Source of the DNA: an uncultured Actinomycetes bacterium | GTDB taxonomy: Bacteria; Actinomycetota; Actinomycetes; Mycobacteriales; Jatrophihabitantaceae | Direction of reading: 5' to 3' | DNA: 64,000 nucleotides | Assembly (NCBI GenBank): GCA_963708805.1 | Contig: CAVPUA010000003.1 | Span: 750,455 to 814,454 of the forward strand | Part shown: one piece after another, positions 2,235 through 64,000 of the stretch | Layout: each line of letters begins with the position of its first letter | Numbering within the stretch: the stretch's first letter is position 1 | Position numbers and translations under genes: made by a program | Notes under the pieces: generated by a model | What the model saw: the letters and a program-made list of their open reading frames with translations, nothing else | Told to the model about the DNA's origin: nothing | Databases searched by the model: none

Positions 2235-3884
2235 TCAGAGGGGCCTCAACAGGTCGTCGGCGTCGACGATCGTGTACGCGTAACCCTGCTCGGCCAGGAA
2301 CCGCTGCCGGTGCGCGGCGTACTCGGCGTCCAGGGTGTCGCGCGCGATCACCGTGTAGAAGTGGGCCTGACGGCCGTCCTTCTTGGGCCGTAGCACGCGT
2401 CCGAGCCGCTGCGCCTCTTCCTGGCGCGACCCGAACGTCCCGCTGATCTGGATCGCGACCGCCGCCTCGGGCAGGTCGATCGAGAAGTTCGCGACCTTGC
2501 TCACGACCAGCACGCGTGATTCGCCGCGACGGAACTCGTCGTAGAGGCGCTCGCGCTCCTTGTTCGTCGTCGATCCCTGGATGATCGGGGCGCCGTCCAG
2601 TTCGGCCGAGACGTCGTCGAGTTGGTCGAGGTACGCCCCGATCACGAGCACCTGGTCGTCCGGATGCTGGTCGACGATCGTCTTGATCACCGGCAACTTC
2701 GTCCGGGCGGTGGCCGCGAGCTTGTAGCGGTCCTCGGGCTCGGCCGTCGCATAGCTCATACGTTCGGCGTCGGTGAGCGTCACGCGCACCTCGGTGCAGT
2801 CGGCCGGCGCGATCCAGCCCTGGTTCTCGATGTCCTTCCACGGCGCGTCGTAGCGCTTGGGGCCGATCAGGCTGAAGACATCGCCCTCGCGGCCGTCCTC
2901 GCGGATCAGCGTCGCCGTAAGGCCGAGCCGGCGCCGCGACTGCAGGTCGGCAGTGAGCCGGAAGATCGGGGCGGGCAACAGGTGTACCTCGTCGTAGATG
3001 ATCAAGCCCCAGTCGCGCGAGTCGAACAGCTCGAGGTGGCGGTATTCACCCTTCCGGCGGGTCGTCATCACCTGGTAGGTGGCGATGGTGACCGGGCGGA
3101 TCTCCTTCTTCTCACCGCTGTACTCGCCGATCTCGTCCTCGGTGAGCGACGTGCGTGCGAGCAGTTCCCGCTTCCATTGGCGACCGCTGACGGTGTTGGT
3201 GACCAGGATCAACGTGGTCGCCTTGGCGTGCGCCATCGCCGCCGCGCCGACGAGTGTCTTGCCCGCGCCGCAGGGCAGCACGACCACGCCCGAGCCGCCG
3301 GCCCAGAACATGTCGACGGCCTGTTGCTGGTAGTCGCGCAGCACCCAACCGTCCTGATTCAGATCGATCTGGTGCGCCTCGCCGTCGACGTAGCCGGCGA
3401 GGTCTTCGGCCGGCCAGCCGACCTTCAGCAGCGCCTGCTTGAGCCGACCGCGCTCGGACGGGTGGACGAGCACCGTGTCGTCGTCGACGCGGGTGCCCAG
3501 CATCGGGGCGATCTTCTTCTGCCGCAGGATCTCTTCGAGCACGGCGCGGTCGAGGCTGATCAGGGCCAGGCCGTGCACGGGGTGCTTGACCAGCTGCAGC
3601 CGTCCGTAGCGATCCATCGTGTCGGCGACATCGACCAGCAGCGCGTGCGGCACCGAGTAGCGGCTGTAGCGCACCAGCGCGTCGACGACCTGCTCGGCGT
3701 CGTGGCCGGCCGCCCGCGCGTTCCACAGGCCCAGCGGCGTCAAACGATAGGTGTGGACGTGCTCGGGCGAGCGCTCGAGCTCGGCGAAGGGCGCGATGGC
3801 GGCGCGGGCCTCTTGCGCCATGGGGTGGTCGACTTCGAGTAGCAGGGTCTTGTCGGACTGGACGATCAGGGGTCCCTCGGTCAC
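2235..3884 (-). CDS. XPB/ERCC3-type SF2 DNA helicase (Rv0861c-like)
   Basis: The ORF-track frame 2235..4025 contains the Walker A motif GAGKT, DEVH, and XPB-specific N-terminal and RED-like regions. The start is placed at GTG (VTEGPLIVQSDKT) by analogy. The upstream part of the ORF overlaps the opposite-strand gene. Confidence 0.85.
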   Translation of the reverse strand: MTEGPLIVQSDKTLLLEVDHPMAQEARAAIAPFAELERSPEHVHTYRLTPLGLWNARAAGHDAEQVVDALVRYSRYSVPHALLVDVADTMDRYGRLQLVKHPVHGLALISLDRAVLEEILRQKKIAPMLGTRVDDDTVLVHPSERGRLKQALLKVGWPAEDLAGYVDGEAHQIDLNQDGWVLRDYQQQAVDMFWAGGSGVVVLPCGAGKTLVGAAAMAHAKATTLILVTNTVSGRQWKRELLARTSLTEDEIGEYSGEKKEIRPVTIATYQVMTTRRKGEYRHLELFDSRDWGLIIYDEVHLLPAPIFRLTADLQSRRRLGLTATLIREDGREGDVFSLIGPKRYDAPWKDIENQGWIAPADCTEVRVTLTDAERMSYATAEPEDRYKLAATARTKLPVIKTIVDQHPDDQVLVIGAYLDQLDDVSAELDGAPIIQGSTTNKERERLYDEFRRGESRVLVVSKVANFSIDLPEAAVAIQISGTFGSRQEEAQRLGRVLRPKKDGRQAHFYTVIARDTLDAEYAAHRQRFLAEQGYAYTIVDADDLLRPL

Positions 3885-58455: not shown

Positions 58456-60045
58456 TCAGCCGACCATCTCGAATTTGTCGAAGTGGATCTTGGCACGCGG
58501 AACGCCGCTGTGGACCAGCTTGCTGACCGTCGTCGAGATCATCGGATCCGGCCCCGAGACGAGCACATCGACCCCCATCGTCGCCCAGTCCCGCAGTCCG
58601 GGCACGATCTCCTCGACCCGTCCGTGATAGCCCTCGTAGGCCGGATCGTCGGACAGCACGGCGTGCACTTCGGCGTTCAACCAGTAACCCCCGGCGTGGA
58701 TCAGCTTGGCCAGCTTGTCGACGGAATAGGTGTCGTCTCGAGATCGGCCCCCGACGAACGTGTACAGCTGCGGTGCGTCGGGCCAGCCGAGGATCGACTC
58801 GACGACGGCCGTGATCGGTGCGGCCCCGGTGCCCGACGCGACGCACAACAGGCCGCCCGGAACGGTGCCGGGTTCGACCACGAGATCGTTGCCCCTCGGC
58901 GGCCCGAGCGTGAGACGGTCACCCGGCTGGGTGTGGGCGACCAGCGCCGACGAGACGCCGGACCCACCGAGCGCGCGGACTTGGATGTCGAAGGTGTTGT
59001 CGGCGCGCGGCGCGCTCGCGATCGACATCGAGCGCCACTCCCGGCGGAACGCGGGCACCTCGAGCGTGAGGTACTGGCCGGCCTTGTACGGGTACGGCGC
59101 GTCGGGCTGGATGCGAAGGACGGCGAAATCGCGCGAGAGTCGCTGATGATCGAGGACCTGCGCGCCCCACGACGTGGGCTCGCCCGCGTGCTGCATGGCG
59201 CCGTCGATCATGATCGTGGCGAGCCGCGTGTAGCTGCCGACGATGGCCGCCTCGTGTTCATCGGTCCACTTGTTGCCGGCCAGCCGCTTCCAGGCGCTGA
59301 TCATGGCGGCGCCCGCGACCTCGTAGTGCCGGGGTTCGACGTCGAACTTCCGGTGATCGGCCCCGAGCTGTTCCAGGTGCGCGGTCAGGCCCTGAGGATC
59401 GTCGGCGACCACCCACTGGACGACGGCCCGGCCGAACTCCTGACGCTGCCGGGTCATGCTCGACGGGAACATGAACGGAGCCTCGGGCACGCGCAGGAAC
59501 AGCTCGGCGTAGAAGTCCGAGATCAGCCGGTCGGCCCGGTCGCTGACGAACGAGAACGCTTCGCGCACCAGCGCCGGATCGAAGTCGCGCTGGTTGGCCG
59601 GGAAGACGGGCTTGGGCGGGGGCGGCGGTGTCTGGGCGACATAGAACTCGGGCAGGTTCGGAGGCGGAAGGCGTCGTTGCGCATTGCCGACGACCAGCTC
59701 GCCCGGGGCGGCGATCGGCGGGGCCGGGGCAGCCGGTACCGGCGCCGGTGCGACGGCGGCGGGCGGTGCAGGTAGCTCGGTGTCCGCGTGGGGTGGGCCG
59801 GGCACCTCGGCTTCGAACGACTCCGGCCTCGGGTGCGCGCTAAGCGACGTCGTCCAGCTCGTCGACCCGTCCGGCGACGGTGAATCGGTGGGCGGTTGGC
59901 CCGCCCCGCGTTCGTGTCCGTGCTGCGGCGCCGAGTAGTCGTCGTCGAGGAGCCATCGCCGTAGTGCACCGCGCAATCCCACCGGACACCCCCTGTTCAG
60001 GACCGCGCGCAACGCACTTGGCCTCATACCACGCGTGTCGGCCAC
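58456..60045 (-). CDS. flavohemoglobin-like protein (globin plus FAD/NAD(P)-binding reductase) with Pro-rich N-terminal extension
   Basis: Globin block (DPALVREAFSFVSDRADRLISDFY...HYEVAGAAMISAW) followed by FNR-like block (AGQYLTL...GTGAAPI). Roughly 140-aa Pro-rich N-terminus; the exact start is uncertain. Confidence 0.75.
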   Translation of the reverse strand: MADTRGMRPSALRAVLNRGCPVGLRGALRRWLLDDDYSAPQHGHERGAGQPPTDSPSPDGSTSWTTSLSAHPRPESFEAEVPGPPHADTELPAPPAAVAPAPVPAAPAPPIAAPGELVVGNAQRRLPPPNLPEFYVAQTPPPPPKPVFPANQRDFDPALVREAFSFVSDRADRLISDFYAELFLRVPEAPFMFPSSMTRQRQEFGRAVVQWVVADDPQGLTAHLEQLGADHRKFDVEPRHYEVAGAAMISAWKRLAGNKWTDEHEAAIVGSYTRLATIMIDGAMQHAGEPTSWGAQVLDHQRLSRDFAVLRIQPDAPYPYKAGQYLTLEVPAFRREWRSMSIASAPRADNTFDIQVRALGGSGVSSALVAHTQPGDRLTLGPPRGNDLVVEPGTVPGGLLCVASGTGAAPITAVVESILGWPDAPQLYTFVGGRSRDDTYSVDKLAKLIHAGGYWLNAEVHAVLSDDPAYEGYHGRVEEIVPGLRDWATMGVDVLVSGPDPMISTTVSKLVHSGVPRAKIHFDKFEMVG

Positions 60046-60929: not shown

Positions 60930-62243
60930 TCAGGCCGCGTCGGCCGACGCGGTTGCGATCCGGTTGCGGCCGTCGCTCTTGGCTCGATACAGCGCGGCGT
61001 CGGCTGCGTGCATCAGCTCGGTCACCGTCCCGCCGCCATGCGGGTAGGTGGCGATGCCGATCGAGACCGAGAGATCGTTGATCAACCGCGGTCCGTCCGG
61101 GTGCTCGGCGTAGGTGTCGAGCACGGTCACGCCGTGTCGGATCCGCTCGGCGACCGTGTGCGCCTCGGACTCGCGGGCGCGCGAGAGGAGCACCACGAAC
61201 TCCTCGCCGCCGAACCGCCCGACGGCGTCGTTGTCGCGGACTTCGCCGGTGATGCAGTTGGCCACCGCGCGCAGCACTTCGTCGCCGTTGAGGTGACCGT
61301 GCTGGTCGTTGATCCGCTTGAAGTGGTCGAGGTCGATCATCAGCACGCTCAGGGTCGCGTCGGCGCGGTTGGCAGCTTTGGCCAGCTCGCGACTCGCGCG
61401 ATAGTGCCAGCTCGCCGCGTTGAGGACGCCCGTCTTGTGGTCGAGGATCGCGGTCGTCTCGAGCTCCCGGTTGAGCAGGCCGCGGTGCAAGATCATCAGC
61501 GGCGGGAGGATCGCGATCGACACCGCGGGCAGGGTCACCATGACGAGCGCGACGATCACCGCGAGGCAGAGGGTCGCGACCTCGAGGAAGTTGTCCGGCC
61601 AGCTGCCGATCACCTCGTGCACCGAATGCGTACGGGCCCAGATGGTGGGGACGACGAGTACGGCACCGATGAGGAAGTAGACCGCCAGCGAGGCGGACAG
61701 GGCCAGTATCCCGTCGGTTCCGCGGTCGGTCGCCTGCTTGATGCCGCTGACGCCGAACAGGTTCAGGACGGCTCGCGCGAGATAACACGTCAGGATCACG
61801 AAGCAGGTGTTCATGATCGAGCGGTACAGCGTGATCTCGCGCAATCGGTACCAGCTGCGCACACTCAACTGCAGGTACAGGAGGACGACCAGAGCGGCGA
61901 CGAGGATCGGCGGCAGCAGCAGTACGCCGGCGAATGTCCAGACCGACGTCAAGTTGATGTGTGCGGTGTCGGTGAGTTGTCGCCGCATGCGTTCGGTCTG
62001 TCGACCGATCTCGGCCTGGGCGATGCCCAGCGCCGTCAGGCCGGCGAGCACCACGAGATCGTGCCATTGGACTGTGGTGTCCCTCGCAATGACCAAAGTC
62101 GACGCGACAACGGTGGCTTCGACCAGAAGAATATAAGCGACTATCGACCGCGGTTGCGCCCATAACGCCCACGAAAATCGTCGGCGCACCACAGAAGAGG
62201 GCCAAGGGCCCTCGCTCGCGGAACTTAAATCAGTAATACTCAT
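60930..62243 (-). CDS. membrane-bound GGDEF-domain diguanylate cyclase
   Basis: About 7 TM helices N-terminally. C-terminal GGDEF with intact GGEEF A-site and the RxxD I-site region. Confidence 0.85.
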   Translation of the reverse strand: MSITDLSSASEGPWPSSVVRRRFSWALWAQPRSIVAYILLVEATVVASTLVIARDTTVQWHDLVVLAGLTALGIAQAEIGRQTERMRRQLTDTAHINLTSVWTFAGVLLLPPILVAALVVLLYLQLSVRSWYRLREITLYRSIMNTCFVILTCYLARAVLNLFGVSGIKQATDRGTDGILALSASLAVYFLIGAVLVVPTIWARTHSVHEVIGSWPDNFLEVATLCLAVIVALVMVTLPAVSIAILPPLMILHRGLLNRELETTAILDHKTGVLNAASWHYRASRELAKAANRADATLSVLMIDLDHFKRINDQHGHLNGDEVLRAVANCITGEVRDNDAVGRFGGEEFVVLLSRARESEAHTVAERIRHGVTVLDTYAEHPDGPRLINDLSVSIGIATYPHGGGTVTELMHAADAALYRAKSDGRNRIATASADAA

Positions 62244-62329
62244 AGGGTCTCACCGAACGGGCGAGATCGAAATAGGCGCGCGCCCACATTGCGCCACATT
62301 GCTCGCGATCCTGACCGACCGCGAATTAC

Positions 62330-62560
62330 CCCCGAAAGGGTGCAACATGTCCAACCGCGAAGGCTGACCCTCGCACTCGTCACGTCCCACCTACTTGAAG
62401 GAGCAGTTGTGAACCGCGAAGGCTGATCGTCCCTCAGTTCCGTCCCGGCTACCCGAAGGAGCAGTTGTGAACCGCGAAGGCTGAACCAAACCACGCAGTA
62501 CCGCTAGACCGTGCTACACCACCCCCGCTAGGAGTAATCATGTCCAACCGCGAAGGCTGA
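62330..62560 (+). repeat. array of four tandem SD-led mini-ORFs (MSNREG / MNREG / MNREG / MSNREG) separated by C/T-rich spacers
   Basis: ATGTCCAACCGCGAAGGCTGA at 62347-62367 and 62540-62560. GAAGGAGCAGTTGTGAACCGCGAAGGCTGA at 62397-62426 and 62456-62484. Each start lies 5-6 nt after a GGAG-type motif. Confidence 0.6.
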
Positions 62561-62702
62561 ACTCACGCTAGCTTAACACCTAACTGGTCGATGCGACACC
62601 TGGGATTTGCGTCGGTCGAGTTCGGTGCGGTCGAACCCCTATCCCGCGCCGTTTCGACACGATCCAGATGTCGGTCGGCCCGAGGCCCAGTTGCCTCCAC
62701 GA

Positions 62703-63980
62703 TCAATCGCCGGCGCCGTGCCTGGCGTTCGTGCGCGGACTGCTGAGCGCGATCCAAATCGCGATCACGGCGCCTGCTGCCCCGGCGAGCGCGACCGTGT
62801 TGCGGGTGCCGATCTGATCGGCCAGCAAGCCGGCGGCGAGTGCCCCGATGCCTTGAACGGCGACGAGCCCGGAAGTCAGCAATCCGGATCCCTGCGCCCG
62901 CATCGAGTTGGGTAGCCGGCGTACATACGCGGCCGTGCTCTGGATGTTGTACCCGGTGGCGACCAGGCCCGACATCGCGAACAGGGCCATCGAGACGACC
63001 AGGTTCGGGTGCATGACGCAGACGGTCAGTGGCAGGCCGGCGACCACGCCCAGCAGGGCGAGCGTGCGGATCGGCAACGACGCCGGCACCCACTTGCCGA
63101 ACACGATCCCGCCGAGCACGCTCCCGGCGGGATCGCTCGCCATCAACAGCCCGACGGCGCCGGCGCCCGCCCCCAGCGCGGCCGCGTACGGGGCCGCCAG
63201 CGCTTCGGGGACCACGTAGAACCCGGCCAGCCACGACAGGCACAGCAGCGAACGAAGGGTGGGGTCTCGCCAGACCAGCTGCGCGCCGGCGGATGTGGAC
63301 GCGAAGAACGACAGGCGCTCGGTCGGTTGCACGGTGTGCGGGTGCACGCCGATCCGCAGGATCAGCGCTGAAGCGAGGAACGTCGCCGCGTCGAGGGCCA
63401 GACCGGTCGAGGAATCCAACCCGGCGACGATGGCCCCGCCGCCGGCGAAACCGACCAGCTGGGCACCCTGGATCGTGATGTTGCGGACCGCCATTCCAGC
63501 GGTGTAGGTGTCGCCTTCGAGGACGTCGGGAAGAACCGCCTGCTGAGCCCCACGAAACGGCCCGCCCAGCAGCGCCATCAACGCCACCAGCAATCCGACG
63601 AGCCACAACGGACAGCCGTGGATCGCCGCTGCGCCGATGAAGGCGGCCCGAGCCAGGTCGAGTGCCACCATCACCCCGCGACGTGGGTAGCGATCACCCA
63701 GACCGCCGAGCAGCGTCCCGCCGATGAAGGCGGGTACGAACGTGAGGGCGTACGCCAGGCCCGTCCATGCCGCCGACCGAGTGTGGTCGAACACGAGGAC
63801 CGCGAGCGCCACCCGAGCCAGCTGATCGCCGGCGATCGAGAGCGTCTCGGCCGACCACAGAGCACGGAACTCGGCGATGGCGAACGGAGCGAGCAGGCCG
63901 CCTCTTGTCGGCCGCTCGGCACTCGAGTGCCTGCCTTGCTCTAGCCGAAGATCCCGGTCGTCGCGACGAGGCACCGACAT
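62703..63980 (-). CDS. MFS transporter (EntS/enterobactin-exporter-like)
   Basis: Intact 425 aa with 12 predicted TM segments and MFS motif A region (GGLGDRYPRR). Confidence 0.75.
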   Translation of the reverse strand: MSVPRRDDRDLRLEQGRHSSAERPTRGGLLAPFAIAEFRALWSAETLSIAGDQLARVALAVLVFDHTRSAAWTGLAYALTFVPAFIGGTLLGGLGDRYPRRGVMVALDLARAAFIGAAAIHGCPLWLVGLLVALMALLGGPFRGAQQAVLPDVLEGDTYTAGMAVRNITIQGAQLVGFAGGGAIVAGLDSSTGLALDAATFLASALILRIGVHPHTVQPTERLSFFASTSAGAQLVWRDPTLRSLLCLSWLAGFYVVPEALAAPYAAALGAGAGAVGLLMASDPAGSVLGGIVFGKWVPASLPIRTLALLGVVAGLPLTVCVMHPNLVVSMALFAMSGLVATGYNIQSTAAYVRRLPNSMRAQGSGLLTSGLVAVQGIGALAAGLLADQIGTRNTVALAGAAGAVIAIWIALSSPRTNARHGAGD

Positions 63981-64000
63981 GCCTTCGTCACCTCCGAGAT

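Follow-up and report, generated by a model that had tools for sequence, protein, structure and literature searches.

A 459-bp gap between two genes of an actinomycete carries, on the + strand, four tandem Shine-Dalgarno (SD)-led mini-ORFs that encode, in order, MSNREG, MNREG, MNREG and MSNREG. Judged by comparison with related loci, these units are real mini-cistrons, each with its own ribosome loading, and belong to a conserved and apparently undescribed gene family; the most likely product of the arrays that they form is a very short peptide acting together with the membrane diguanylate cyclase (DGC) encoded beside them. The gap runs from the start of the DGC (GGDEF) gene at 62243 to the stop of an MFS transporter gene at 62703, within the window, by which we mean the whole 64-kb stretch of DNA that was analysed (69.9% GC); the features are collected in Table 1. 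An earlier sequence-only reading of the gap proved correct in every detail when the letters were re-read, from the four SD-led mini-ORFs and their positions to the length of the gap and the repeats: unit 3, SD and mini-ORF together, is an exact 30-bp copy of unit 2, and the two outer units share the same 21-bp ORF. The same reading described the spacers as C/T-rich and G-poor; richness in C and poverty in G hold locally (3, 5 and 7 G against 15, 14 and 21 C in spacers 1, 2 and 3) and are common to the arrays of Amycolatopsis, but not universal, as Thermocrispum and Actinophytocola arrays are G-rich.

Table 1. Features of the mini-ORF array and its neighbouring genes (window coordinates)
Feature	Position	Strand	Remark
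Membrane diguanylate cyclase (DGC)	60930..62243	-	Partner gene
Divergent control region, 103 nt	62244..62346	.	Annotated GGDEF start codon to first mini-ORF start
SD-like GAAAGGG, unit 1	62334..62340	+	6 nt before ATG; sequence read
Mini-ORF 1, ATG TCC AAC CGC GAA GGC TGA	62347..62367	+	MSNREG
Spacer 1, 29 nt	62368..62396	+	C-rich, G-poor; without conservation in relatives
SD GAAGGAG, unit 2	62397..62403	+	5 nt before GTG
Mini-ORF 2, GTG AAC CGC GAA GGC TGA	62409..62426	+	(f)MNREG, five codons
Spacer 2, 28 nt	62427..62454	+	
SD GAAGGAG, unit 3	62455..62461	+	5 nt before GTG
Mini-ORF 3, GTG AAC CGC GAA GGC TGA	62467..62484	+	(f)MNREG
Spacer 3, 45 nt	62485..62529	+	
SD AGGAG, unit 4	62530..62534	+	5 nt before start
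Mini-ORF 4, ATGTCCAACCGCGAAGGCTGA (ATG TCC AAC CGC GAA GGC TGA)	62540..62560	+	MSNREG
Conserved 11-mer TAGCTTAACAC	62569..62579	.	Right after last mini-ORF; identical in related locus L001
MFS_1/MFS_3 transporter gene	62703..63980	-	Pfam; cyclase strand, convergent with mini-ORFs

The control region between the cyclase gene and the first mini-ORF presumably holds the promoter or promoters. The 11-mer beyond the last mini-ORF keeps its relative position in L001 despite differing flanking spacers, and could mark the end of the transcript or be a -10-like element on one or the other strand. Scans of the window, L001 and a third locus (L023) with consensus promoters and terminators, which cover actinobacterial promoters poorly, returned nothing relevant; their single terminator-like site lies inside the cyclase gene. 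A minus-strand ORF of 84 aa (62240-62494) has no Pfam match and was considered spurious.

A chance origin had been called very unlikely, and the counts bear this out. The 15-mer AACCGCGAAGGCTGA occurs four times in the 64-kb window with 0 mismatches, each time in this intergenic region, and four matches were not reached in any of 100 shuffles of the window that preserved its dinucleotides, even with two mismatches allowed (mean 0.18). A regex search of both strands of the window for ORFs of at most 10 codons containing N-R-[D/E] returned only these four.

The comparative set was made up of loci encoding this DGC family, 87 in all, 86 of them fetched relatives. From 1 to 12 or more tandem SD-led ORFs of 5-7 codons are found in 77 of the 87, in Jatrophihabitantaceae-like bacteria, Amycolatopsis, Kutzneria, Thermocrispum, Actinokineospora and other Pseudonocardiaceae; absence from close relatives, which the sequence-only reading had said would speak against it, is thus not what we see. 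The mini-ORFs are divergent from the DGC gene in all array loci surveyed, and the first of them starts 103-116 nt (mode 110; 57 loci) from the annotated DGC start. A unit consists of a strong SD, a start codon (ATG or GTG) ~5-8 nt further on, 4-6 sense codons and UGA as the stop, units follow one another with a period of ~60-70 nt, and the family peptide is M-x-[N/S/G]-R-[D/E]-[S/T/N/G]. In the window and the 86 loci (538 kb), the pattern start-X-X-R-[D/E]-X-stop has 325 matches on the cyclase-divergent strand and 0 on the opposite one; a purine block at -14 to -9, the SD, is conserved in all 325 units, and UGA ends 321 of them. Of 306 short SD-led ORFs inside arrays, 303 are family members, and all homologous units found adjoin a cyclase gene, in loci that were collected around this DGC family. 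MSNREG itself is also encoded in the related loci L001 and L002, its Ser codon being TCC or AGC, and five-codon variants are known from other loci too, such as MSRDN in L034. A metagenome scan gave 0 matches to the exact MSNREG ORF; a degenerate two-copy pattern, which was too loose, matched at least 120 stretches, with no true SD-led array among the matches listed. Literature searches on the peptide strings, tandem sORFs, c-di-GMP and Amycolatopsis found nothing relevant.

Variation among the units falls on nucleotides 6, 9, 12, 15 and 18, the third codon positions, while nucleotides 4, 5, 7, 8, 16 and 17 are nearly invariant though the search regex left them unconstrained. Codons switch between families without changing the residue (Ser as TCC, TCG or AGC; Arg as CGN or AGG), so that 330 units amount to 82 DNA sequences yet 20 peptides, and MRNRES is encoded by 29 different DNA versions. 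Neither the sequence nor the composition of the spacers is conserved among arrays. The + strand array RNA of the window folds worse than all 200 of its shuffles (z = +2.8), arrays in 12 loci are likewise less structured than shuffled sequence (z = +1.8 to +6.3), and the consensus fold of the upstream ~110-nt region has an energy of -8 kcal/mol and a covariation term of -0.8; neither the array nor that region shows a fold that is stable or covarying. From the third-position variation, the synonymous switches and the unconserved spacers and structure, we therefore conclude that purifying selection acts at the amino-acid level, on M-x-[N/S/G]-R-[D/E]-[S/T/N/G]. The suggestion that the array is a polycistronic micro-peptide RNA, one of three roles put forward without a preference among them, is accordingly borne out in its coding part only, by peptide-level selection across 330 units in 77 loci.

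The only long-range pairing predicted merely joins two similar ribosome sites on opposite strands. An Rfam search of the window region at E up to 10 had as its best match rmf (E = 0.79, below the gathering score), which we treated as chance, and six related loci gave no match at the gathering score; with no covariance-model match and no covarying structure, the array is not an Rfam RNA and lacks the marks of a structured regulatory RNA or riboswitch. Nor is it a classical leader, because no same-strand gene lies downstream, as had been pointed out from the window alone. Beyond the array, the next + strand sequence of the window is antisense into the MFS gene, and in relatives a convergent gene or unrelated genes follow. 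An attenuation leader array, proposed earlier and already doubted then, fails more widely, since a same-strand downstream gene is absent at every locus and the RNA is under-structured. Cis-antisense control of the GGDEF gene, a further proposal, is unlikely as a general mechanism, because arrays reach up to ~800 nt from that gene and would need an equally long GGDEF 5' UTR.

By gene neighbourhood, we take the DGC to be the constant partner of the arrays, the units being inherited together with one membrane DGC family. The cyclase has an N-terminal multi-helix domain with the fold of an ECF-transporter S component, a small-ligand-binding fold, and, behind it, a GGDEF domain carrying an RxxD I-site; a PDB sequence search with the sensor domain gave no match. 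A recurrent second partner is an adjacent MFS gene of the same family as in the window. Among the 86 fetched loci, 27, from many genera, have it, without exception on the cyclase strand and in one of two orders: it either precedes the cyclase gene or overlaps the 3' end of that gene. Such a neighbour is missing from the main Amycolatopsis clade, and the gene downstream of the array varies by lineage between MFS, SDR, HAD hydrolase and recombinase. Peptide type tracks cyclase clade, a covariation equally expected from simple vertical co-inheritance, and two paralogous loci of one genome encode different peptides, MRNRES and MCGRDN. Three cyclase clades have no mini-ORFs and still keep nearly all sensor-domain invariants; only R87 is altered, in two of the three, in a weak and phylogenetically confounded comparison.

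The best explanation overall, to which we would give a little under an even chance, is that the free translated peptide modulates the S-component-like sensor domain of the DGC and thereby tunes c-di-GMP. The array would be transcribed divergently from the cyclase gene, and each unit would be translated, possibly reiteratively, ORFs of 2-8 codons being open to re-translation without release of the ribosome (PMC6495379). A hydrophilic peptide of five or six residues, in the window (M)SNREG and MNREG, would thus be produced at a high rate, in a dose set by the tandem copy number. The free peptide would be the effector, a ligand or modulator of the cyclase's membrane sensor domain that could act from the cytoplasmic side or once the MFS pump has exported it; the outcome would be tuned c-di-GMP synthesis. 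The tandem amplification of the arrays, with birth and death of units, is expected for a dose-dependent product. A hydrophilic hexapeptide should be short-lived in the cytoplasm, which counts against this explanation; further counter-points are the main Amycolatopsis clade with its missing MFS gene and the mini-ORF-less cyclase clades with their retained sensor invariants. A more specific form, in which the arrays are structural genes of a new leaderless penta- or hexapeptide signal, exported by MFS_3, sensed by the DGC and dosed by copy number, strikes us as rather unlikely. If true, it would amount to an autocrine or quorum circuit from peptide to c-di-GMP in Actinomycetota, with paralogue-specific pairs of peptide and receptor.

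The near-invariant UGA and the conservation centred on R-[D/E]-x-stop would suit an action inside the ribosome at termination too. A cis-acting nascent peptide is the first rival to weigh, a possible but doubtful one. Here the hexapeptide would act in the exit tunnel or at the peptidyl-transferase centre and stall the ribosome at UGA, constitutively or in response to a metabolite or drug, and the stalled ribosomes would set the fate of the divergent transcript, by protection from Rho or RNases and by how far antisense read-through enters the convergent gene, with an end effect on expression of the MFS-cyclase genes; MAGDIS, TnaC, MsrDL and the cat86 MVKTD leader would be its analogues. The strongest conservation does lie at the C-terminal R-[D/E]-x, beside the stop, UGA ends 321 of the 325 units, and length is kept to 5-7 codons. 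Arrest peptides this short are known (MAGDIS, MsrDL, MVKTD). The mini-ORF of the compact loci L003 and L004, moreover, directly adjoins the 3' end of the convergent MFS gene or overlaps it, and a transcript of the mini-ORF therefore has to run antisense to MFS. However, UGA is the commonest stop codon of high-GC actinomycetes anyway, there is neither a same-strand downstream gene nor an expression platform of alternative hairpins, and the gene that follows the array changes between lineages. Cis-acting sensor leaders are also without precedent for tandem amplification to 12 copies, and two loci of one genome, served by the same ribosomes, encode MRNRES and MCGRDN, which differ at four of the five residues after Met.

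The RNA rather than the peptide might be the effector, as a trans-acting or antisense RNA or as a sponge for ribosomes, 30S subunits, RF2 or an RNA-binding protein, with mini-ORFs that would merely load ribosomes and stabilise the RNA. The many strong SD sites at an even spacing of ~60-70 nt fit this, as does the unusually unstructured and accessible RNA, and the close relatives L001 and L002 spell NREG with exactly the codons used in the window. We nonetheless consider it improbable: a sponge or antisense RNA has no need of conserved amino acids, yet variation is almost purely synonymous; the spacers, which make up most of the RNA, are unconserved in sequence and composition; and there is no Rfam family and no covarying structure.

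We think it quite improbable that the units are minimal precursors of a modified peptide natural product of the microcin C or biarylitide type, matured by enzymes encoded elsewhere. In size they fall in the range of the two smallest peptide genes with a known function (PMC4231749, PMC6495379, PMC13417212), many loci have an MFS exporter gene next to the array, and many variants end in Asn as MccA does (MRNRDN, MRSRDN, MCGRDN, MSRDN). Against this, the C-terminal residue is Gly in the window and Ser or Thr, not Asn, in most lineages, there are no aromatic residues for biaryl cross-links, gene tables and Pfam show no ThiF/MccB-like, P450, radical-SAM or other maturation gene conserved beside the arrays, and the sole constant partner is an enzyme of signalling rather than of biosynthesis. 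Finally, a non-coding repeat, whether a REP- or CRISPR-like array or iterated transcription-factor sites, with an accidental resemblance to ORFs, has in our judgement next to nothing left to recommend it and is already contradicted by the comparative data: its regular direct-repeat and spacer layout, with a ~60-70-nt period and variable spacers, could be mistaken for a CRISPR array, but three-nucleotide periodicity, synonymous family switches and the strict retention of SD, start and stop in 330 units speak against it, the repeat is not palindromic, flank gene tables and Pfam scans hold no cas genes, the homologous units found lie beside cyclase genes, and we saw none of the dispersed REP-like copies that the sequence-only reading had raised as a caveat, the 15-mer being confined to one intergenic region of the window.

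The mini-ORFs would rank among the shortest genes under demonstrable amino-acid-level selection, and, as far as the literature found shows, tandem amplification of identical mini-cistrons would be new for bacteria. Peptide-based signalling in actinomycetes is barely documented (review PMC4748050), and the inputs to most of their diguanylate cyclases are unknown; the arrays offer a testable link there between translation or oligopeptides and c-di-GMP signalling. Should the peptide act only within the ribosome, a conserved R-[D/E]-x-UGA hexapeptide would still offer a new and minimal system in which to study how nascent chains affect termination. Such arrays escape gene callers, and in Amycolatopsis they appear as otherwise unexplained gaps of up to ~0.9 kb beside a signalling gene. 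A simple signature, namely SD, start, one to three codons, R, D or E, one codon and stop, recurring every ~60-70 nt, can serve to annotate these loci and to avoid mis-calling them as CRISPR-like repeats.

Several known systems share one or other trait with the arrays. ORFs of 5-8 codons whose sequence is conserved for a role in translation or termination include cat86 MVKTD, cmlA, MsrDL (MYLIFM) and AdoMetDC MAGDIS; such short leaders and uORFs lie upstream on the mRNA of the regulated gene and act by an RNA switch or by blocking scanning. The mini-ORFs, in contrast, are multi-copy, and the marks of an attenuation leader, a same-strand downstream gene and alternative hairpins that could form a switch, were not found. 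Comparable in gene content are the Gram-positive signalling cassettes of the Phr pentapeptides, PapR, SHP/XIP and agr, which cluster the gene of a very short hydrophilic peptide with those of an exporter and a receptor; paralogous cassettes within one genome encode different peptides. The peptides of these systems are cut from secreted precursors of 40-60 residues, and the receptors are RRNPP proteins or histidine kinases. Our loci also bring together a peptide gene, a transporter gene and the gene of a membrane receptor with a ligand-binding domain, but the mini-ORFs lack both leader and signal sequence, and a DGC with an S-component-like domain is the presumed receptor. The tandem layout is matched by insect tarsal-less / polished rice (tal/pri), where short ORFs for near-identical peptides follow one another and copy number multiplies dose; those peptides have 11-32 residues and act on a transcription factor through the proteasome. 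Tandem same-strand short ORFs with near-identical peptides under amino-acid-level selection are what we find too, as a functional analogy only, since tal/pri is eukaryotic and without homology, whereas each ORF of the window has its own SD.

In size, the arrays' units compare with mccA and bytA. The 7-codon microcin C precursor gene mccA of E. coli and relatives is likewise a ~21-nt ORF with its own SD, and its locus has an MFS pump gene, mccC, as an MFS gene adjoins the window array and one of the same family 27 related loci. The free, directly translated oligopeptide is the functional product of mccA; for the window units this is a proposal only. Being so short, mccA can be translated reiteratively: in vitro a ribosome completes ~71 rounds on it, but 30 on an 11-codon version and 6 on one of 15 codons (PMC6495379). 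Its short transcript depends on ribosome binding (PMC4231749). It differs in being single-copy, on the same strand as its biosynthetic operon and upstream of it, whereas the window units are tandem and divergent from the DGC gene. MccA must also end in Asn and undergoes adenylation by MccB, while the window peptide ends in Gly and others in S, T, N or G; no gene for an MccB (ThiF/E1-like) adenylyltransferase was seen among the neighbouring genes by Pfam and gene tables. MccA sequences are unconserved, whereas the mini-ORF peptide is conserved. The 18-bp biarylitide precursor gene bytA of actinomycetes and myxobacteria is likewise the gene of a five-residue leaderless peptide. Its partner is a cytochrome P450, which cross-links aromatic residues, whereas the mini-ORFs are tandem and have neither: the family peptides contain no Tyr, His or Trp, and the flanks no P450. 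bytA evades automatic annotation (PMC13417212, PMC12002111) and shows that five-residue leaderless peptide genes are expressed in Actinomycetota. Together, mccA (PMC4231749, PMC6495379) and bytA (PMC13417212) are precedents for functional, directly translated products of 5-7 residues.

Rereading window positions 61900-64000 reproduced, base for base, the four mini-ORFs described in the sequence-only reading, each led by a motif resembling a Shine-Dalgarno (SD) sequence and all lying in the 459 bp that separate a GGDEF diguanylate cyclase gene from an MFS transporter gene, both on the minus strand. Units 2 and 3 are identical over exactly 30 bp, and the spacers (29, 28 and 45 nt) are rich in C and poor in G. 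The 15-mer AACCGCGAAGGCTGA, common to the units, occurs four times in the 64-kb window and nowhere outside this array; the claim that such units are unlikely by chance held, with a mean of 0.18 occurrences after shuffling and 0 of 100 dinucleotide-preserving shuffles reaching four. A regex search of both strands of the window found no N-R-[D/E] ORF of 10 codons or fewer beyond units 1-4. An ORF of 22 codons that begins with TTG and has no SD, LLAILTDRELPPKGCNMSNREG, continues in frame into unit 1; ACC GAC CGC GAA at 62314-62325 resembles what a decayed fifth unit would leave behind. The 84-codon ORF antisense to units 1-3, which has an ATGA overlap with the cyclase start and no Pfam match, is probably a spurious high-GC ORF.

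Features of the mini-ORF array and its surroundings (window coordinates)
Feature	Position	Strand	Details
Unit 1	62347-62367	+	ATG TCC AAC CGC GAA GGC TGA, MSNREG; SD-like GAAAGGG 62334-62340, gap 6 nt
Unit 2	62409-62426	+	GTG AAC CGC GAA GGC TGA, MNREG; SD-like GAAGGAG 62397-62403, gap 5 nt
Unit 3	62467-62484	+	GTG AAC CGC GAA GGC TGA, MNREG; SD-like GAAGGAG 62455-62461, gap 5 nt
Unit 4	62540-62560	+	ATG TCC AAC CGC GAA GGC TGA, MSNREG; SD-like AGGAG 62530-62534, gap 5 nt
GGDEF diguanylate cyclase	60930-62243	-	Pfam E = 4e-42
MFS_1/MFS_3 transporter	62703-63980	-	Pfam
22-codon ORF	62299-62367		
Possible unit remnant	62314-62325		
84-codon ORF	62240-62494	-	
TAGCTTAACAC	62569-62579		
AATACTCA	62238-62244		
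529-aa ORF	58456-60045	-	globin, FAD-binding and NAD-binding domains

Presence in relatives, which the sequence-only reading had proposed as a check, was borne out: both nearest cyclase homologues (70% and 63% identity; one from a Jatrophihabitantaceae MAG, one from a metagenome contig) keep the same arrangement. There are three MSNREG mini-ORFs in homologue locus L001 and at least three in L002, every one with a strong SD, on the strand divergent from the cyclase and with TCC or AGC as the Ser codon, and homologues of ~50% identity have a single copy, MRNRDT, MSNRDT, MRNRDS or MSNRDS, written with different codons. A wider survey, in which one genome per species was scanned with an alignment of the cyclase N-terminal sensor domain, gave 80 loci, all from Pseudonocardiaceae-type actinomycetes. 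Together with the window and loci L001-L006 these make 87 cyclase loci, all gathered through cyclase homology, and 77 of them have an SD-led family mini-ORF (5-7 codons, M-x-[N/S/G]-R-[D/E]-x, divergent from the cyclase), a count that includes a single MPRRES in L083 that may be a chance match. Copies per locus range from 1 to 12 or more, with up to 12 in Amycolatopsis and at least 11 in a Thermocrispum array that runs into the contig end. Units recur with a period of 60-70 nt where arrays are large and of up to about 100 nt where they are small, and the first mini-ORF start lies 103-116 nt from the annotated cyclase start (mode 110; 57 loci).

Occasional units have lost their start, frame or stop, which points to birth-and-death of units; decay inside the arrays of L022 (about 2100-2060), L024 (about 1985-1965) and L084 (about 740-715, minus strand) includes a 4-nt insertion removing the stop, a GTG to CTG change of the start and a frameshift. 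Amycolatopsis arrays have ATG at the start of their first and last units, and these differ less between species than the inner units, which begin with GTG; the window repeats this pattern, with ATG-TCC outer and GTG inner units, which suggests that arrays expanded by internal duplication. A metagenome scan for the exact MSNREG ORF gave 0 hits, and one with a degenerate two-copy pattern was too noisy, giving at least 120 stretches with no true SD-led array among those listed. Several short contigs of one metagenome project (Ga0213499 and Ga0213500; L096, L110, L115, L130, L138, L150, L153, L159) match this pattern 3-5 times each, were rejected as arrays for want of SD-led mini-ORFs, and presumably hold unrelated repetitive sequence.

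The units vary in the manner of coding sequence. The pattern start-X-X-R-[D/E]-X-stop matched 325 times on the expected strand versus 0 times on the opposite one (538 kb). Across these 325 units, nucleotides 4, 5, 7, 8, 16 and 17 are almost invariant though the regex left them free, nucleotides 6, 9, 12, 15 and 18 vary freely, ATG and GTG starts are equally frequent, 321 stops are TGA, and a purine block stands at -14 to -9. Codon alternatives include CGC/CGT/CGA/CGG/AGG, AAC/AAT, GAG/GAA or GAC/GAT, and TCC/TCG/AGC. Counted more broadly, the units number 330 and fall into 82 distinct DNA sequences but only 20 peptides, with MRNRES encoded by 29 DNA versions, and 303 of the 306 SD-led short ORFs inside arrays are family members. 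The full range of the peptide core is [N/S/G]-R-[D/E]-x-stop, with MSNREG and MNREG in the window and M[RS]NRD[ST], MRNRE[ST], M[RAT]NRDN, M[RCG]SRDN, MCGRDN, MSRDN and MRSSRDN elsewhere. Spacers are conserved between loci in neither sequence nor composition, being rich in C in the window and Amycolatopsis but in G in Thermocrispum and Actinophytocola. The predicted fold of the array RNA is weaker than that of shuffled controls (z = +2.8 for the window; +1.8 to +6.3 in 12 loci), Rfam gave no significant match for the window or related loci, and no covarying structure was found upstream of the array. The strand bias, codon pattern, unconserved spacers and weak folding lead us to conclude, from sequence comparison, that the target of selection is the encoded peptide or its synthesis. 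We exclude a structured RNA, a CRISPR-like array and the REP-like repeat that the sequence-only reading had raised.

Two short DNA motifs lie close to the array. TAGCTTAACAC, 8 nt past the last mini-ORF stop, is identical in L001 at the same relative position (about 2306-2316, minus strand) although adjacent spacers differ, reads on either strand as a hexamer of the -10-like form TANNNT (TAGCTT, TAAGCT), and could be a promoter or the end of an array transcript. AATACTCA spans the annotated cyclase start and has an equivalent in nearly all loci; at this start nearly every clade keeps the nucleotide sequence ATACTCA, whose reverse complement, TGAGTAT, reads as start codon, rare Ser codon (AGT) and AT. 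ATACTCA may serve as a signal in DNA or RNA, such as a piece of the divergent promoter. The cyclase start codon varies (ATG, GTG, TTG), the first ~20 residues are unconserved and poorly modelled, and some gene calls begin about 20 codons later; the true start may lie further downstream than annotated.

In none of the loci examined is the array followed by a gene on its own strand, so it is not a classical leader, in agreement with the sequence-only reading; beyond it lies a convergent gene (MFS, SDR or HAD hydrolase) or an unrelated one. The mini-ORFs have two recurrent partners, the cyclase and one family of MFS_3-type transporter. The transporter gene is adjacent in 27 of the 86 fetched loci, spread over many genera, and also in the window. 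It shares the cyclase's strand in every case and either stands upstream, with the mini-ORFs in between as here, or overlaps the 3' end of the cyclase gene; in its place the main Amycolatopsis clade carries TetR and SDR genes. In compact loci the mini-ORF lies 2 nt from the called 3' end of a convergent MFS gene (L003, 2051-2071, minus strand) or has a 57-nt overlap with it (L004, 1705-1725, minus strand), so its transcript would be antisense to the end of that gene. From its domains, the 529-aa ORF in the cyclase's neighbourhood resembles a flavohaemoglobin; in L001 it is not kept beside the cyclase.

The N-terminal ~260 residues of the cyclase make up a membrane domain of helices, which carries strongly conserved motifs (QAELGRQVERVRRR, HINMTSVW, RSWYRL) and has no sequence match in Pfam or PDB. 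Peptide type follows cyclase clade, and genomes with two paralogous loci have two peptides, MRNRES in arrays and a single MCGRDN. Mini-ORFs were lost in three cyclase clades, whose sensor domains keep nearly all invariant residues. R87, in the ERVRRR motif, is invariant in all 77 loci with mini-ORFs and is deleted or Q in two of the three clades without them, a comparison (L037, L041, L044, L055, L066, L068, L076) that is small and phylogenetically confounded.

At the level of sequence, these comparisons establish conserved SD-bearing mini-cistrons with peptide-level selection, tandem amplification and linkage to the cyclase and often to an MFS gene. Our preferred model, which we hold tentatively, is that the array is transcribed divergently as a unit and would yield a free penta- or hexapeptide. 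Reiterative translation, in which the ribosome is not released, is possible for ORFs of 2-8 codons and has been measured for mccA, of 7 codons (PMC6495379), so each unit is a potential high-output peptide source. Unit copy number would then set peptide dose, and the peptide might act on the putative ligand-binding membrane domain of the cyclase, either from within the cytoplasm or once the MFS pump has exported it. As the main rival, which we consider rather unlikely, the nascent peptide would work while still in the ribosome, at the UGA stop, and so decide what becomes of the divergent transcript running antisense; conservation concentrated at the C-terminus and the near-invariant UGA speak for it, but it sits less easily with the lack of any expression platform, the variable gene downstream, the tandem amplification and peptides specific to each paralogue. 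Lesser rivals are an RNA-only function, a McC- or biarylitide-like precursor, for which the Pfam domains of neighbouring genes include no conserved maturation enzyme (ThiF/MccB, P450, radical SAM), and a non-coding repeat.

A full-text literature search with the peptide strings and related concepts found no published description of these arrays. The nearest precedents are mccA (7 codons) and bytA (5 codons), each a single-copy precursor gene tied to modifying enzymes. The tandem-identical-peptide logic resembles that of insect tal/pri, and the grouping of array, MFS gene and cyclase recalls Gram-positive pheromone cassettes, in which peptide, exporter and receptor genes are clustered. The arrays have no homology or defining features in common with any of these systems.
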